A stretch of 15,016 nucleotides of DNA, from UHGV virus genome UHGV-0154878, one strand, 5' to 3'. Source of the DNA: a virus. A program made the position numbers and the translations under genes. Under the pieces are notes generated by a model. The model was not told the origin of the DNA, searched no databases, and saw only the letters and a program-made list of their open reading frames with translations. This document shows positions 7,672-14,405 of the stretch, piece after piece; position 1 is the stretch's first letter, and the number at the start of each line of letters is the position of its first letter.

Positions 7672-8156
7672 GCATAAGAGAACTAAACCTCACCAAAGAG
7701 CAGCACGAGTGGCTGAATGGCTGGCTTGAACTGTGGGGCGCATGGGTTTATTCAGGTCGTCTGGAAAAGCGCATGAGCAGCGTAATAGCGAAGTTCATGG
7801 AGAGCGTAGAGCCGGGAAGAGTTATGACAAGGCCAATGTGCAATGATGATGATGGAATGTTGATTTCTCAGGTCGTCGATTCCGTCATGTACATTGACAA
7901 GAAAGCCTTTGGCATCCTCCTCAGCTACTACGCTCATGGATCTTCCAAGCATGCCATTGCATCTTACTATCATCGCGTCGCAAGACCTCGCAAGATGTTA
8001 TGCCGGGGCGGCGGGCGTATTCAAAAACCATCGCTCGCAACCTGTCGCCGGGAAGTTGACGAAATCCTCAATGCTTCGTTGTTTATGATTTACCCGGTTC
8101 TGGATAGTGCGTTTAAAAACCGGAAACGTGTAGAGAAAATTAAACATGTAGCATAG
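7668..8156 (+). CDS. Q: Late-gene antitermination protein Q (QuuD/Q82-like family)
   Basis: Motifs LELWGAWV and RPMCNDDDGMLI resemble QuuD-type Q proteins. It is the last gene of the nin region and sits immediately upstream of a promoter-like element, tRNA genes and the lysis cassette. Confidence 0.8.
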   Translation: MSIRELNLTKEQHEWLNGWLELWGAWVYSGRLEKRMSSVIAKFMESVEPGRVMTRPMCNDDDGMLISQVVDSVMYIDKKAFGILLSYYAHGSSKHAIASYYHRVARPRKMLCRGGGRIQKPSLATCRREVDEILNASLFMIYPVLDSAFKNRKRVEKIKHVA

Positions 8157-8162
8157 AACGTG

Positions 8163-8247
8163 TTGACATCATTGAGCAAATGAGCAACACTATTCGCATA
8201 AGCTGCCGTTAGTGACTCTTAAGTTGCAACGGTGGCTTTTTTTATTT
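8163..8247 (+). promoter_or_regulatory. Candidate late promoter PR' and qut region, ending in a tR'-like intrinsic terminator
   Basis: Consensus TTGACA at 8163-8168, 7 nt past the Q stop. The -10 is ambiguous (CACTAT, TATTCG or CATAAG). A hairpin GCTGCCGTT...AACGGTGGC with two G-U pairs is followed by TTTTTTTATTT (8202-8247). Confidence 0.4.
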
Positions 8248-8322
8248 GGGTCAGTCGTATAAAGGTCATTACGGAAGGCTGTTAACCTTCTTATCGTGGT
8301 TCGAGTCCACGCTGTCCCGCCA
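8248..8322 (+). tRNA. tRNA with anticodon GTT (Asn), non-canonical (one acceptor-stem mismatch, short D-stem)
   Basis: Hand-folded cloverleaf. Anticodon arm GAAGG-cTGTTaa-CCTTC. T-arm CGTGG-TTCGAGT-CCACG. Acceptor GGGTCAG/CTGTCCC has a T-T mismatch at position 4:69. Discriminator G, then encoded CCA. Confidence 0.6.
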
Positions 8323-8327
8323 AATAT

Positions 8328-8403
8328 GCTGGTTTAGCTCCAATGGTAGAGCGGTCGCCTTGTAAGCGAATGGGTAGCGGTTCAAGTCCGTTAACCAGCA
8401 CCA
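8328..8403 (+). tRNA. tRNA with anticodon TGT (Thr)
   Basis: Perfect 7-bp acceptor stem GCTGGTT/AACCAGC. D-arm GCTC-caatGGta-GAGC. Anticodon loop cTTGTaa. T-arm AGCGG-TTCAAGT-CCGTT. Discriminator A, then encoded CCA. Confidence 0.75.
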
Positions 8404-8490
8404 TAACTGAGCCGTAGCCACTGGCTATCCTGAATTCATCAGTGATAGTTACGCTGCGGCCTTCTACACATGACCTTCGTGAAAGCGGGC

Positions 8491-8526
8491 GGCATGAGGT
8501 TGCGCTAACAACCTCCTGCCGTTTTG
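8491..8526 (+). terminator. Hairpin with a short T-run downstream of the tRNA genes (candidate terminator or processing structure)
   Basis: 12-bp stem with one mismatch, GGCATGAGGTTG-cgctaa-CAACCTCCTGCC, followed by GTTTT. Confidence 0.4.
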
Positions 8527-8645
8527 CCCGTGCATATCGGTCACGAACAAATCTGATTACTAAACACAGTAGCCTGGATTTGTTCTATCAGTAATCGACC
8601 TTATTCCTAATTAAATAGAGCAAATCCCCTTATTGGGGGTAAGAC

Positions 8646-8969
8646 ATGAAGATGCCAGAAAAACATGACCTGTTAGCCGCCATTCTCGCGGCAAAGGAAC
8701 AAGGCATCGGGGCAATCCTTGCGTTTGCAATGGCGTACCTTCGCGGCAGATATAATGGCGGTGCGTTTACAAAAACAGTAATCGACGCAACGATGTGCGC
8801 CATTATCGCCTGGTTCATTCGTGACCTTCTCGACTTCGCCGGACTAAGTAGCAATCTCGCTTATATAACGAGCGTGTTCATCGGCTACATCGGTACTGAC
8901 TCGATTGGTTCGCTTATCAAACGCTTCGCTGCTAAAAAAGCCGGAGTAGAAGATGGTGGAAATCAATAA
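8646..8969 (+). CDS. S: Class I holin, lambda S type, with dual-start motif (Met1-Lys2-Met3)
   Basis: The 107-aa product is almost identical to lambda S as I recall it ([39 protein letters not shown]...). The MKM N-terminus corresponds to the S107 antiholin and S105 holin starts. Confidence 0.95.
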
Positions 8970-9429
8970 TCAACGTAAGGCGTTCCTCGATATGCTGGCG
9001 TGGTCAGAGGGAACTGATAACGGACGTCAGAAAACCAGAAATCATGGTTATGACGTCATTGTTGGCGGAGAGCTATTCACTGATTACTCCGATCACCCTC
9101 GCAAACTTGTCACGCTAAACCCCAAACTCAAATCAACAGCAGCCGGACGTTACCAGCTTCTTTCCCGTTGGTGGGATGCCTATCGTAAGCAGCTTGGCCT
9201 GAAAGACTTCTCTCCGAAAAGCCAGGACGCTGTGGCATTGCAGCAGATTAAAGAGCGTGGCGCTTTACCGATGATTGATCGCGGTGATATCCGTCAGGCT
9301 ATCGATCGTTGCAGCAATATCTGGGCGTCGTTACCTGGTGCAGGTTACGGTCAGTATGAACATAAAATCGGTGACCTGATTGCCCGATTTAAAGAGGCTG
9401 GTGGGGTGGTAAATGAAGTTGAGCTATAA
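8953..9429 (+). CDS. R: Endolysin, lambda R-type lytic transglycosylase
   Basis: The 158-aa product is near-identical to lambda R through most of its length ([51 protein letters not shown]...) and diverges only in the last residues. Confidence 0.95.
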
Positions 9430-9805
9430 GCTGGTTATCGCTGCATTCTTCTTTACTGTCATCGGTTCTTTCATCTGGTCTGCCAACCACTACTACAGCA
9501 AATATCAGCACGAAAAGAAACGTGCTGATGAGGCTGTACAAAATGCCAAATCGGCAACTGTCATTACCAATAACGTCCTGCAATCACTGCAAATCGTCAA
9601 TACAGTTCTGGAGGCTAACCAGCATGCAAAACAGCAGATCACACTGGAGTCACAGAGAACCGAGAACGATATCAAGGCTGCTGTTGCGGATGATGATTGT
9701 GCTGTTCGTTTTGTGCCTTCTGGCGCAGTTAAGCGGCTGCACGACTACGCGAACGGTCTACGTTCCAGTTCCGGTGGTTCCGTTACCAGCCAACCTGACG
9801 GCTGA
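9413..9805 (+). CDS. Rz: Rz-like inner-membrane spanin (i-spanin), not lambda-type
   Basis: N-terminal transmembrane helix LVIAAFFFTVIGSFIW followed by a charged, probably coiled-coil periplasmic region. Sits directly after the endolysin and overlaps its 3' end by 17 nt. Confidence 0.6.
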   Translation: MKLSYKLVIAAFFFTVIGSFIWSANHYYSKYQHEKKRADEAVQNAKSATVITNNVLQSLQIVNTVLEANQHAKQQITLESQRTENDIKAAVADDDCAVRFVPSGAVKRLHDYANGLRSSSGGSVTSQPDG

Positions 9806-9968
9806 AACACCGCAGCCAGACTTACCCGACCCGTTTACGTGGGGAGCAAGTCTTGACCTGAATGTCGCATTGCTGTCAGCGCTGGCGCAGTGCAACAGGG
9901 ATAAGGCTGATATCAGGATTTTCGAGAACAACAGGGCAGGACAAACCGATGGCACGATTAAACGTTGA
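9690..9968 (+). CDS. Rz1: Rz1-like outer-membrane lipoprotein spanin (o-spanin), overlapped in the +1 frame and extending past the Rz stop
   Basis: Signal peptide plus lipobox MMIVLFVLCLLAQLSGC, followed by the proline-rich stretch TVYVPVPVVPLPANL typical of Rz1. The start lies inside Rz in a different frame. Confidence 0.55.
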   Translation: MMIVLFVLCLLAQLSGCTTTRTVYVPVPVVPLPANLTAETPQPDLPDPFTWGASLDLNVALLSALAQCNRDKADIRIFENNRAGQTDGTIKR

Positions 9969-10134
9969 AGTTATCCCACCAGACAGCGAGGTGCTGAACG
10001 GGATTTTTGCAGAGATTGAGCGCAAATATGCGCGTCAGCCGCTGACGCCAAAAGTAATTGATGAAATGCAACGCGAAGTGGCGCGCCTTGTGCGGCGAAT
10101 GATAACCACAAAGGTTACGTTCGTCCGGGACTGA
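9949..10134 (+). CDS. Hypothetical small protein (61 aa)
   Basis: ATG 9949 with AGGGCAGGA upstream. Followed by a hairpin at 10142-10164. No recognisable family. Confidence 0.35.
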   Translation: MARLNVEVIPPDSEVLNGIFAEIERKYARQPLTPKVIDEMQREVARLVRRMITTKVTFVRD

Positions 10135-10188
10135 CATTACAGAAGCCCTTCACTGAGGGGCTTCGATAATGGAGCACTGGAATTATTC

Positions 10189-10809
10189 ATGAACAGACCA
10201 CACCCACCAGCGCATTTTACGATGCCACCTGACCCGAAGCCGTACATCAGCATTATGCCCGCTAATGACGTTGGCGAGTGGCTGAATCAGCACATCCTGA
10301 GCGATGAGGGTGACCTCTACAACCCTGACCACCAGCATTTGCTTGAAGCGGATCTGTGCTTTCTCTGGGCGTCGAACGCTTTCGAGAAGAAAGGGCGTTC
10401 CGTGCTGGGGCAGGCGGAAGAAGTGGCAATGCGTGCCGGAGGCTGGCAGAAAGCGCGGATGGAGCAGCAGATGTATGAATGGTTCGGCAGGGTGCCGCAG
10501 TTCATCATCACGCTGGCCGCTGATTACTGCTCGCAATGTTCCGATCTGGAATTCTGCGCGCTGATAGAGCACGAGCTTTATCACATTTGCCAGGCGACAG
10601 ATGAATTTGGCGCGCCGAAGTTCACGCAGGAAGGGCAGCCAAAGCTGAAGCTGCGCGGCCATGACGTGGAAGAGTTTGTGGGCGTGGTTCGCCGTTACGG
10701 TGCGAGCCGGGACGTGCAGGAAATGATTGATGCGGCGAATCAGCCAGCGGAGGTTGCTCATCTCGATATTGCCAGAGCGTGCGGGACGTGCATGCTGCGA
10801 CTGGCTTAA
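10189..10809 (+). CDS. Putative zinc metallopeptidase-like protein (HExxH motif), possibly of the phage 'putative peptidase' family
   Basis: EHELYH motif in a 206-aa ORF co-oriented with all flanking late genes. The overlapping - strand ORF (10183-10878) has antisense-type composition. Family assignment is from memory and unverified. Confidence 0.5.
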   Translation: MNRPHPPAHFTMPPDPKPYISIMPANDVGEWLNQHILSDEGDLYNPDHQHLLEADLCFLWASNAFEKKGRSVLGQAEEVAMRAGGWQKARMEQQMYEWFGRVPQFIITLAADYCSQCSDLEFCALIEHELYHICQATDEFGAPKFTQEGQPKLKLRGHDVEEFVGVVRRYGASRDVQEMIDAANQPAEVAHLDIARACGTCMLRLA

Positions 10810-10840
10810 ATACTGGACTGTATAAGACGAATGGTGATTT

Positions 10841-11314
10841 ATGGCTGCATTAAAACCTGATGTGAAAGCCTTCATCATTCAGTCGCTTGCGTGCTATGAC
10901 ACGCCATCGCAGGTGGTCGAGGCTGTCCAAAAAGAATTCGGGATCAAGATCACCCGCCAGCAGGCTGAATCTCACGACCCCACGAAGGCCAGCGGTAAGA
11001 CGCTCGCCAAAAAGTGGATCGAGATGTTCCACGCGACGCGCGAACGGTTCCTGACCGAAACCAGCGACATTCCGATCGCGAACAAATCCTATCGCCTCCG
11101 CGTGCTTGACCGCATGGCAACCAAAACCGAGGGGATGAAAAACTTCTCCCTGACGGCGCAGCTGATTGAACAGGCCGCGAAAGAGGTTGGCGACGCTTAC
11201 ACCAATAAGCTGAAGGTTGAGAGCACTGGCAAGGATGGCGGCCCGATCAAGACCGAGACGACCAACCTCACCGCAGATCAGGCCGCAGAGATTTACCGCA
11301 AGATGATGGGGTGA
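10841..11314 (+). CDS. Putative terminase small subunit (DUF2280-like)
   Basis: 157-aa ORF immediately upstream of the large terminase subunit, with an overlapping stop. The N-terminal region looks like a DNA-binding domain. Assignment is by position and weak recollection. Confidence 0.5.
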
Positions 11315-11316
11315 TC

Positions 11317-12939
11317 ATGCCTCTCCCGTTTGAATTCGATTTCAGAAACCCTGATTACCAGATGGTTTTTGAATGGCGGATGGAGCGCTTACAGCGCATT
11401 CGCCAGAACCCTGAAATGCTGCCAGCGCTAAAGCAGTTTTACCGCACCAACCCGGCACAGTTCATCATCGACTGGGGTATGACTACTGACCCGCGTAACA
11501 TCGATTATGGCCTGCCGGTCACCATCCCTTTTCTGCTGTTCCCGAAACAGGAAGAGTGGATTCACTGGATCATGGAGCGGCGCGAACGACTGGAGAACGG
11601 CATCACCGAAAAGAGCCGCGAAATGGGGCTCAGCTGGACGGCGATCGGGCTGGCCTGTTCGCTCTGCCTCTTCAACAAAGAAATGGTTATCGGTTTCGGC
11701 TCCCGTAAAGAGGAATACGTCGACAGCACCGGTGACCCGAAGGCGCTGTTCTGGAAGGCGCGAAAGTTCGTGGAAACACTGCCCATCGAGTTTCGTGGTT
11801 CGTGGGACGAGAAGAAGCATGCGCCGTATATGCGCGTTGAGTTTCCAGATACTGGCGCGGTTATCAAAGGCGAGGCTGGCGACAATATCGGACGTGGTGA
11901 CCGTACCACGCTCTACCTGGTGGATGAAGCTGCATTCCTCCAGCGTCCTCTGTTGATTGATGCGGCGCTGTCGCAAACCACCCGTTGCCGTATTGACCTG
12001 AGCTCGGTTAATGGCATGGCGAACCCGTTCGCGCAGAAGCGCCACGGCGGAAAAATACCAGTATTCACATTCCACTGGCGAGATGACCCGCGCAAGGATG
12101 AAGAGTGGTATCGCAGGGAGTGCGAGAAAATCGACAATCCGGTGGTGGTGGCGCAGGAACTTGACCTGAACTACAGCGCATCTGCGGAAGGCGTCCTGAT
12201 CCCGTCCGACTGGGTACAGGCTGCCGTCGACGCGCATATCAAACTTGGTATTCAGCCAACGGGCAAGCGACTTGGCGCGATGGACGTCGCCGACGAAGGC
12301 CGGGACAAAAATGCCTTTTCGACCCGTCACGGCTTCCTTCTGGAGAACGTGCGTGAATGGTCCGGCGTGGGCAGCGACATTTACCAGTCCGTTGAGAAGG
12401 TCTTCGGCTTTTGCGAACAGGACAACCTCGAAGAGTTTCGCTTCGACGAGGACGGCCTGGGTGCTGGCGTTCGCGGCGATGCGCGCGCCATCAACGAACT
12501 GCGTAACGCTGCGCGCCGACCGTCAATACTCGCCACACCGTTTCGTGGTAGCGGCGCGGTATTTGATCCGGACGATGAAGCGGTGCGCGGGGACAACGGA
12601 CAGGCCGCACGCCTGAACAAGGACTTCTTCGCCAACGCCAAGGCCCAGAGCTGGTGGTGGCTACGCAAGCTTTTCCAGAACACCTATCGCGCCGTGGTTG
12701 AGGGCATGGCCTACAACCCGGACGAAATCATCTCAATCAGCAGCGCCATGGCGAGCAAAGACAAACTCATCATCGAGCTGTCGCAGCCGACCTACTCCAT
12801 TAACGGCGTGGGGAAAATCGTTGTTGATAAACAGCCTGACGGCACCAAGTCGCCGAACCTCGCCGACTCGGTGATGATCAGCTACGCGCCAATGAATTCA
12901 GCCCTGAACATCTGGGAGCTGCTAGGGAGACAGGCCTGA
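11317..12939 (+). CDS. Terminase large subunit
   Basis: About 540 aa with ATPase and nuclease-type architecture (LYLVDEAAF Walker B-like segment), positioned between the small terminase and portal. GGGG Shine-Dalgarno 6 nt before ATG 11317; GTG 11311 is the alternative start. Confidence 0.85.
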
Positions 12940-14405
12940 TGGCACGAAACAAGCAATCCTCTCAGCGAACGGCACAGCCCACCGCTGACGGCTACGAGAA
13001 CTTCGTCGCCCGCGTTGGGATGCAGACGCCTAACCAGCATTCAGCATCGACCTACCGGGCGAACTTCACCAGCCGCAACCGCATGCTGGTGGAATGGTCA
13101 TATCGCGGTTCGTGGGTTATCGGTGAAGCGGTCGACGCTATCCCGGACGATATGACCCGAAAGGGCATTCGCATCACTTCGGAGATTGACGCCAAAGACC
13201 GTGGCACCCTCGAAGCGCAACTGGATGAGTTGCAGATCTGGGATGCGCTGAACGACGTGCTGAAATGGTCGCGCCTCTACGGCGGCGCGGTCGGCTTCAT
13301 CATGATCGAGGGGCAAGCACCAATGACCCCGCTGCGACTCGAAACCATTGGCGAGGGCAAGTTTAAGGGCATTCTCCCGCTCGACCGCTGGATGATTAAC
13401 CCGGTGCTGACACGCCGCATTAAAGAGATGGGGCCGGACCTCGGCAAGCCTGAGTTTTACGACGTGGTGACCACCGCAACGGGCATTCCGGCCTGGCGCA
13501 TCCATCACAGCCGCCTGATCCGCTTTGATGGCGTCACGCTGCCATTCCAGCAGAAGATGACCGAAAACGAATGGGGAATGTCGGTTGTAGAGCGTATCTG
13601 GGATCGGCTTACTGCGTTCGATAGCGCTACTGTCGGCGCGGCGCAGCTGGTCTATAAAGCGCATCTGCGTACCTATAGCGTGGAGAAGTTGCGCGAGCTT
13701 ATCGCGCTTGGAGGCCCGGCGTTCGAAGCGTTGCTGAAGAACATCGACCTGATCCGCCAGTTCCAGAGCAATGAAGGTATGACGCTCATGGACTCGCGGG
13801 ATAAGTTCGAAACCCACCAGTACAGCTTTAGTGGTCTGGATGACATTCTTTCGCAGTTTGCTGAGCAGATCAGCGGTGCCGTTGGTATCCCGCTGGTACG
13901 CCTGTTCGGTCAATCCCCGAAAGGCTTCTCTACTGGTGATGCAGACCTCGCCAACTATTACGACCGGGTGAGCTCATTGCAGGAGCGCCGCTTACGGCTG
14001 CCGATGCGCCGGATACTGGACATTATGCACCGCTCGGAACTCGGAAAGCCGCTGCCGGACGATTTCACGTTTGAGTTTAACCCGCTATGGCAAATGTCAG
14101 ACGTTGACCGATCAACGGTGGCCGTAAACACCACCAACGCGATCAGTACCGCGCTGGGCGACGGATTGATGACGCGTAAGGCGGCGATGACCGACCTGCG
14201 CGAAAACTCTGACGTCACCGGCATCGGGGCATCCATTACCGACGAGGACATAGAGAATGCCGAAGACGAAGCGCCGCCAGGCATCGGCGAACTTGGCGAC
14301 AAACCGCCAGAGTCGCCAGGCGGAGATCCGATATCGAACGAGCCTACGGCAGATAGCGCGGGCGGTCGGGGATATCGTAAATGGGCGCTACGATGGTTCA
14401 AATGA
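12939..14405 (+). CDS. Portal protein (DUF1073-type), with an acidic, Gly/Pro-rich C-terminal tail
   Basis: 488-aa ORF immediately after the large terminase (ATGA overlap) and before a head morphogenesis gene. Confidence 0.8.
   Translation: MARNKQSSQRTAQPTADGYENFVARVGMQTPNQHSASTYRANFTSRNRMLVEWSYRGSWVIGEAVDAIPDDMTRKGIRITSEIDAKDRGTLEAQLDELQIWDALNDVLKWSRLYGGAVGFIMIEGQAPMTPLRLETIGEGKFKGILPLDRWMINPVLTRRIKEMGPDLGKPEFYDVVTTATGIPAWRIHHSRLIRFDGVTLPFQQKMTENEWGMSVVERIWDRLTAFDSATVGAAQLVYKAHLRTYSVEKLRELIALGGPAFEALLKNIDLIRQFQSNEGMTLMDSRDKFETHQYSFSGLDDILSQFAEQISGAVGIPLVRLFGQSPKGFSTGDADLANYYDRVSSLQERRLRLPMRRILDIMHRSELGKPLPDDFTFEFNPLWQMSDVDRSTVAVNTTNAISTALGDGLMTRKAAMTDLRENSDVTGIGASITDEDIENAEDEAPPGIGELGDKPPESPGGDPISNEPTADSAGGRGYRKWALRWFK

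Follow-up and report, generated by a model that had tools for sequence, protein, structure and literature searches.

Does the lysis region of a lambdoid genome with an almost lambda-like holin gene descend from lambda as a whole, or are lambda-type genes joined in it to spanin genes of a different ancestry and, if so, at which positions do the parts meet? This question was raised by positions 8646-9968 of a 15,016-nt stretch of viral DNA (referred to here as the window), which a preliminary description had read as lambda-type S and R genes combined with an overlapped Rz/Rz1 pair of non-lambda type and with a lipobox. This central idea was upheld by the present analysis. The region is very probably the lysis cassette, still intact, from the late operon of a lambdoid (pro)phage, mosaic by homologous recombination, in which the ATG at 9624 is the most likely start of Rz1. 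The cassette is at the same time an ordinary, already known and annotated combination of known modules, and represents one more case of lambdoid mosaicism, of little importance beyond its correct annotation.

The window belongs to a lambdoid (pro)phage whose early region (cI, cro, O, P, the nin genes and Q) resembles those of HK620, mEpX2 and HK022. Two tRNA genes, for tRNA-Asn (8248-8322) and tRNA-Thr (8328-8403), are located 3' of Q, and four overlapping genes are encoded on the plus strand, i.e. S at 8646-8969, R at 8953-9429, Rz at 9413-9805 and, with its end at 9968, the Rz1 frame. Each of these positions was recovered in the ORF check as first described, and all four ORFs were shown to be of full length when compared with their homologues. 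Downstream of Rz1, a 61-aa ORF, a PhageMetallopep protein, a DUF2280 protein (10841-11314) and two long ORFs (11311-12939 and 12939-14405) are encoded, the last two being taken as putative terminase large subunit and portal genes on account of their position and the annotation of the related prophage of Escherichia coli ABWA45. A promoter scan of positions 8100-10900 identified no sigma-70-like site, and the four terminator-like sites detected in the same interval are all located on the minus strand within genes, their count not exceeding that of shuffled sequences.

Holin and endolysin genes

The S gene encodes a 107-aa holin/antiholin which is identical at 106 of its 107 residues to the S proteins of both lambda and HK633, the sole change relative to lambda being R105G; the near-identity to lambda S that had been noted earlier was thus confirmed. 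Both the holin_lambda equivalog TIGR01594 (127.3 bits; cutoff 55.05) and Pfam PF05106 (105.3 bits; cutoff 23.8; E=2.4e-30) were matched by this protein. S begins with MKM (8646-8654), in which Met1 at 8646 would correspond to S107 and Met3 at 8652 to S105, and the 46 nt preceding the gene (8600-8645), including the upstream (sdi) sequence, are exactly those of lambda. The dual start, shared with lambda and HK633, has therefore been kept, as previously proposed, and S is a lambda-family class I holin gene with a dual-start motif, for which two products are predicted. By analogy with lambda, these would be the holin S105 and the antiholin S107, which would time the formation of the inner-membrane hole. 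The overlap between S and R, previously given as 8 nt, was found to be 17 nt (8953-8969), as it is in HK633 and in lambda itself (lambda positions 45493-45509).

The R gene (8953-9429; plus strand) encodes a protein of 158 aa and shares a further 17 nt with Rz at its 3' end. Searches of Pfam and NCBIfam gave no match, and the assignment was settled by PHROGs (phrog_90, endolysin; E=5e-63) and by the PDB, where lambda lysozyme (1AM7) was matched over residues 1-157 with an E value of 2e-100. R is a predicted lambda R-type endolysin, which, judged by these homologues, would degrade murein as a lytic transglycosylase of the lambda type. Its sequence is 93% identical to that of lambda R (147/158), 97% to that of HK633 and 95% to that of SfII. 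Residues 1-62 are the same as in lambda, including the SEGTD segment that contains Glu19, which we take to be the catalytic residue of the lambda enzyme. The differences from lambda comprise G63A and ten others, all of which are located in residues 135-158. The claim that R is almost identical to its lambda counterpart therefore stands, whereas the divergence, formerly ascribed to the last few residues, affects ten of the last 24.

Overlapped spanin genes and the start of Rz1

Rz (9413-9805; plus strand), situated directly 3' of the endolysin gene, is the putative i-spanin gene of a two-component spanin, its 130-aa product being predicted to consist of a membrane anchor and a helical periplasmic domain. 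A hydrophobic segment was observed at approximately residues 7-22 (peak at 7-21), preceded by Lys2 and Lys6, and the AF2 model showed helices at residues 5-99 and 103-117, followed by a low-confidence C-terminal tail that is encoded in the overlap with Rz1. The protein matched phrog_214 (Rz-like spanin; E=1.7e-42) and is 77-80% identical to the Rz proteins of the Shigella phages SfII, SfIV and SfV. NCBIfam gave no match, and the Pfam family DUF2570 was matched with 23.3 bits, under its gathering score of 26.6, although PGAP still labels near-identical i-spanins as DUF2570. When compared with lambda Rz, the common part was limited to a transmembrane stretch of 20 residues, seven of which are identical, and the periplasmic domain exhibited no detectable similarity, in line with the earlier view that this Rz is unlike that of lambda. 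With neither homology in the periplasmic domain nor an embedded Rz1, the pair falls outside the embedded lambda Rz/Rz1 family.

Rz1 (9624-9968; plus strand) encodes a 114-aa o-spanin precursor of the LysC family, as indicated by matches to Pfam PF23793 (65.7 bits; cutoff 27; E=3.6e-18) and phrog_456 (E=7e-28), with no match in NCBIfam; its similarity to lambda Rz1 is restricted to the signal peptide and the Pro-rich start. The gene lies in the +1 frame of Rz, has 182 nt in common with it and ends 163 nt beyond the Rz stop, consistent with the preliminary description. Since Rz1 begins inside Rz in another frame and passes its stop, the pair is of the overlapped architecture (Summer 2007; Kongari et al. 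2018), defined by an o-spanin gene that starts within the i-spanin gene in a different frame and extends beyond it (PMC6139136).

Inspection of sequence patterns revealed a putative lipoprotein signal of the form ...RLLLR-MMIVLFVLCLLAQ-LSGC-T, and the proposed lipobox is indeed present as L36-S37-G38-C39 (9729-9740), with its Cys codon at 9738-9740 followed by a codon for Thr, not Asp, which would suit sorting to the outer membrane. The TGC codon was found in all 42 unique homologues, and alignment showed G38 and C39 to be invariant throughout the family and also in P2 LysC and lambda Rz1. The Gln at position -4 is outside the strictest lipobox patterns, and the lipobox Cys, which is residue 39 if translation starts at 9624, falls outside the range of 15-35 that is usual under PROSITE PS51257. 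The mature protein would comprise 76 residues, including eight Pro residues and one further conserved Cys. Rz1 is consequently regarded as a putative o-spanin lipoprotein, its lipidation and its interaction with Rz being suggested by family membership. By analogy, Rz would act as the inner-membrane-anchored helical i-spanin and form a two-component spanin with Rz1, and this complex would span the periplasm and remove the outer membrane by fusion with the inner membrane as the last step of lysis. It is likewise on the basis of family membership that we infer the lysis activity of the cassette as a whole.

The most likely start of Rz1 is the ATG at 9624, which yields the 114-aa precursor with a predicted, unusually long basic n-region. 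A GGAGG sequence (9610-9614) is located 9 nt 5' of this ATG, and the equivalent start has been chosen in four independent annotations, i.e. those of SfV, SfIV and Klebsiella phage Mulock and that of PGAP. The ATG is conserved in all 42 unique homologues, although the Rz residue encoded across it may be His, Tyr or Asp, and the frame 5' of it is closed by TAG at 9609 in 15 and by TAA at 9594 in 17 sequences. No stops were found in codons 1-22 of any of the 42, and codons 12-14 showed synonymous variation in the Rz1 frame, all four Pro codons being used at codon 13. The peak of variation was observed to move from the Rz wobble position in the Rz-only part to the Rz1 wobble position from 9623 onwards, a shift of marginal significance (Fisher p=0.03). 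This substitution pattern indicates that both overlapping frames are under purifying selection. A GTG at 9522, which opens a 148-aa ORF and corresponds to the start chosen for RZ1 of SfII, was rejected, since the frame is closed by the stops at 9594 or 9609 in many homologues.

A start further downstream, at TTG 9684 (94 aa, MRMMIV..., Cys19), ATG 9690 (92 aa, Cys17) or ATG 9693 (91 aa, Cys16), would imply that the upstream 22 codons are conserved only as part of Rz; this is unlikely, even though several observations are in its favour. The resulting signal peptide of 16-19 residues would have the usual lipoprotein length, the alignment with P2 LysC begins near this point (MRTKIF...), ATG 9693 occurs in all and TTG 9684 in 40 of the 42 unique homologues, and an AAGG sequence is located 6 nt 5' of TTG 9684. 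However, the forms starting at ATG 9690 and 9693 possess neither Lys nor Arg in the n-region and are not preceded by a Shine-Dalgarno sequence. Furthermore, the retention of ATG 9624 opposite a variable Rz residue, the synonymous changes at codons 12-14, the stop-free codons 1-22 with stops just 5' of 9624 in many sequences, and the agreement of the four annotations all argue for ATG 9624. TTG 9684 and ATG 9690/9693 are possible as additional or alternative starts of Rz1.

In Rz1, a conserved basic N-terminal extension of 22 residues, MQNSRSHWSHREPRxISxxLLR, precedes an otherwise normal lipoprotein signal. This extension and the internal starts conserved at 9684-9693 might even, between them, constitute a dual-start arrangement.

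The small ORF 3' of Rz1 (9949-10134; plus strand; 61 aa) overlaps the 3' end of Rz1 by 20 nt, belongs to phrog_12811, a family of unknown function, and adjoins Rz1 in 78 of 80 IMG/VR loci. Its AF2 model (pLDDT 93) displayed a beta-alpha-alpha-beta layout, for which Foldseek comparison with the PDB and BFVD returned nothing at E<0.2, and a phmmer search of the PDB gave no match. A sequence-based guess that the product is a ribbon-helix-helix protein was dropped, as it received support from neither Foldseek nor phmmer. The ORF is followed by a stable stem-loop on the plus strand (10135-10171; -21.3 kcal/mol; z=-4.6), which is located at the right-hand boundary of the module. That the 61-aa ORF or the 22-residue extension of Rz1 regulates the export of the spanin or the timing of lysis in some uncharacterised way appears improbable, although neither is explained by standard spanin models.

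Decay of the Rz/Rz1 pair, as the non-functional remainder of a defective prophage, is very unlikely. Such decay would be in keeping with three related loci in which the 5' part of Rz is missing and with a fourth whose Rz frame incorporates a KilA-N-like ORF by fusion. In the window, however, both ORFs are of full length, the transmembrane segment, the lipobox and the conserved Cys residues are intact, as are the flanking Q, S, R and putative terminase/portal genes, and the substitution pattern points to purifying selection in both frames.

Junctions within the cassette

DNA homologous to lambda positions 44945-45944 was identified by blastn at 8405-9404 (plus strand; 94.8% identity over 1000 nt), encompassing the region upstream of S, S itself and most of R. 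This homology begins right after tRNA-Thr and stops 25 nt before the R stop codon, and no alignment to lambda was possible 3' of 9404. In 40-nt windows, the identity to lambda is 98-100% through S, 90-100% over 8960-9319 and approximately 62-75% over 9320-9404. Among isolated phages, HK633 comes nearest to the window in S and in the first two-thirds of R, differing at a handful of positions across 8640-9280, while SfIV is 95-100% identical from approximately 9080 to approximately 9640. Informative sites are of the HK633 type up to 9186 and form an unbroken run of the SfIV type from 9303, with an SfIV-type site at 9282 and an HK633-type site at 9285 in between. The switch from HK633/lambda-type to SfIV-type sequence is thereby placed at 9187-9302 (R codons 79-117), an interval that is approximate because HK633 and SfIV are proxies, i.e. 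the best representatives of the parents rather than the true parents. The interval lies in the R core, which is common to both lineages at 95% identity or more, and an exchange within such shared sequence fits homologous recombination.

An alignment to lambda had been proposed as the means of locating the breakpoint precisely; its endpoint at 9404, however, marks only where the alignment ceases, and not the switch defined by the informative sites. The mosaic nature of the cassette is thus retained from the preliminary description, whereas, in place of the one breakpoint proposed for the 3' end of R, there is a switch inside R and there are further junctions at approximately 9606-9640 and at 10171.

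The second junction is situated inside Rz at approximately 9606-9640, the identity to the Sf phages decreasing from approximately 97% to 60-88% per window after approximately 9640. Approximately 30 IMG/VR loci with different Rz N-termini align to the window only from 9606-9616 onward, with 87-95% identity, and Klebsiella phages begin to match at 9593-9611. The recurrent junction seen in the IMG/VR alignments (9606-9616; plus strand) spans the Shine-Dalgarno sequence of Rz1, and at least five types of Rz N-terminus are joined to the same module of Rz C-terminus and Rz1. Fast evolution of the Rz/Rz1 overlap was considered as the cause of the decrease after 9640; since the homology of other loci and of the Klebsiella phages sets in at 9593-9616, we favour recombination, although the two are not mutually exclusive. 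The third junction is located at 10171, just past the stable hairpin, where the homology of many loci ends. These homology edges, at 9593-9616 and at 10171, delimit a unit that travels together and comprises the C-terminus of Rz, Rz1 and the 61-aa ORF.

Divergence of the R 3' end and of Rz/Rz1 from a lambda-like ancestor by point mutation, with no recombination, is highly improbable. Consistent with such divergence, the identity to lambda falls stepwise (92-100%, then 62-75%) and not in one jump. Against it, SfIV is 95-100% identical over 9320-9640, exactly where the identity to lambda collapses, the Rz periplasmic domain has no detectable similarity to that of lambda, the architecture differs (overlapped with a 130-aa Rz versus embedded with a 153-aa Rz), and other lambdoid phages combine these segments independently.

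Homologous recombination among lambdoid phages would accordingly have assembled the cassette from at least three distinguishable pieces. The first (8405 to approximately 9190) would be of the lambda/HK633 type, and the second (approximately 9300 to approximately 9640), comprising the 3' portion of R together with the first two-thirds of Rz, of the SfIV/SfII type. The third (approximately 9606/9640 to 10171) would contribute the Rz C-terminus, Rz1 and the 61-aa ORF, with its nearest copies in E. coli prophages. The first exchange would have taken place in the R core common to both lineages, and the exchange points would thus lie within conserved sequence, i.e. this core and, within Rz, the NQHAKQQ region, which extends over the ribosome-binding site of Rz1.

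Occurrence and known relatives

At least 80% of positions 8600-10140 was detected in 52 of the 5426 complete RefSeq E. coli genomes, the best match being the ABWA45 prophage (NZ_CP022154.1; 98.2%), and the Rz/Rz1 type alone was present in 569 genomes. ABWA45 and the 51 other genomes, as well as three IMG/VR loci with the same genes at 95-100% protein identity, exhibit the same gene set and the same junctions. That these junctions arose as an assembly chimera is barely conceivable, as nothing specific speaks for it and they recur in 52 complete genomes and in independent IMG/VR contigs. ABWA45 differs from the window by a few substitutions, most of them in 9800-9920, and by its flanking Q and packaging genes. 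Of the 80 IMG/VR loci that are closest in Rz1, lambda-type S and R were found in 11 and an SfII-type holin with R in 35, while 28 contained neither of these holin types and no R-type endolysin.

PGAP names parts of the cassette 'phage holin, lambda family', 'glycoside hydrolase family 24/104', 'DUF2570' and 'Rz1-like lysis system protein LysC', the i-spanin being left unannotated in ABWA45 and named DUF2570 in other genomes. The practical gain of the present analysis is the correct Rz1 start (9624) and the overlap lengths; gene callers often miscall the starts or overlaps of overlapped spanins (PMC6139136). In the catalogue of Kongari et al. (2018; PMC6139136), whose spanin families include SfIV and SfV, more two-component systems are of the overlapped type (228 of 528) than of any other.

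SfII, SfIV and SfV, which share a holin-lysin-Rz-Rz1 cassette (SfIV genome paper, PMC3851460), resemble the window in their overlapped architecture, with a 130-aa Rz, an equivalent Rz1 ATG, a 17-nt overlap between R and Rz, and Rz1 proteins that are 66-70% identical. Conversely, their holin is only 25% identical to S and does not possess the MKM start, the 5' end of R is only 70-80% identical, and the 61-aa ORF is absent, an HNH gene being located downstream instead (PMC3851460). Lambda and HK633 resemble the window in S and R, but their spanin is of the embedded type with a 153-aa Rz. The R/Rz overlap of lambda is 4 nt, and HK633 shares only the transmembrane segment of Rz past R, up to 9497.

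The LysB/LysC pair of P2, the prototype overlapped spanin, has the same architecture, and LysC is 32% identical to Rz1 over 81 residues, including the second conserved Cys, but does not contain the 22-residue N-terminal extension. P2 LysB, in contrast, exhibited no significant pairwise similarity to Rz (BLASTP E=0.21). Klebsiella phage Mulock, whose spanin genes were curated by the Center for Phage Technology, has an o-spanin with 77% identity to Rz1, the start and the ribosome-binding site being placed as in the window, and the C-terminal part of its Rz is homologous to that of the window. Its Rz N-terminus, however, is of the lambda-like MSR...TAII type, its holin is different and its endolysin is a SAR endolysin.

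Chimeric i-spanin genes and the o-spanin precursor

Comparison of IMG/VR loci carrying relatives of the o-spanin Rz1 (L012-L018, L062-L088 and L005) revealed that the i-spanin (Rz) genes are chimeric: one and the same Rz C-terminus/Rz1 module is preceded by N-termini of at least five unrelated types (MKLxYKL, MKMSYW, MSRLTAII, MSISLK and MGEAMKIHYK). The chimera junction is located at positions 9606-9616 of the window, within the conserved NQHAKQQ region, whose DNA also carries the ribosome-binding site and start codon of Rz1.

With its most likely start at 9624, the Rz1 precursor possesses a conserved, basic N-terminal extension of 22 residues (9624-9689), which precedes the hydrophobic core of the signal peptide and thereby places the lipobox cysteine at residue 39. 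This extension is absent from both lambda Rz1 and P2 LysC.

A small ORF associated with Rz1

A 61-aa ORF (9949-10134, + strand), assigned to PHROGs family phrog_12811, shares 20 nt with the 3' end of Rz1, stop codon included. Among the 80 IMG/VR loci carrying the closest Rz1 relatives, this ORF adjoins the window-type Rz1 in 78, independent of the flanking holin, endolysin or packaging genes. AlphaFold2 confidently predicted a beta-alpha-alpha-beta arrangement (pLDDT 93), for which Foldseek identified no structural match with E below 0.2 in the PDB or BFVD, and phmmer no sequence match in the PDB. The only isolated-phage match was to 'Elizabethkingia phage EKP1' (68% identity).

Four loci represent degraded or rearranged relatives. 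In L031, L032 and L046, the 5' part of Rz is missing and an integrase/excisionase remnant adjoins Rz1 and the 61-aa ORF. In L049, the Rz C-terminus carries an in-frame fusion to a KilA-N-like ORF.

Boundaries and downstream genes

On the left-hand side, a tRNA-Asn(GTT) and tRNA-Thr(TGT) pair (8248-8403) lies between Q and S. Since lambda homology starts at 8405, directly 3' of the tRNA-Thr gene, the pair marks a module boundary. On the right-hand side, a stable hairpin lacking a T-run (10135-10171; -21.3 kcal/mol, z -4.6) is placed between the 61-aa ORF and a metallopeptidase-like gene, and coincides exactly with the end of homology (10171) of many related loci.

The latter gene (10189-10809, + strand) encodes a 206-aa protein with a Pfam PhageMetallopep match (E 2e-43) and an HELYH motif. 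Its PHROGs family (phrog_513) is named 'transposase', a label which looks doubtful. The next gene (10841-11314) encodes a DUF2280 protein.
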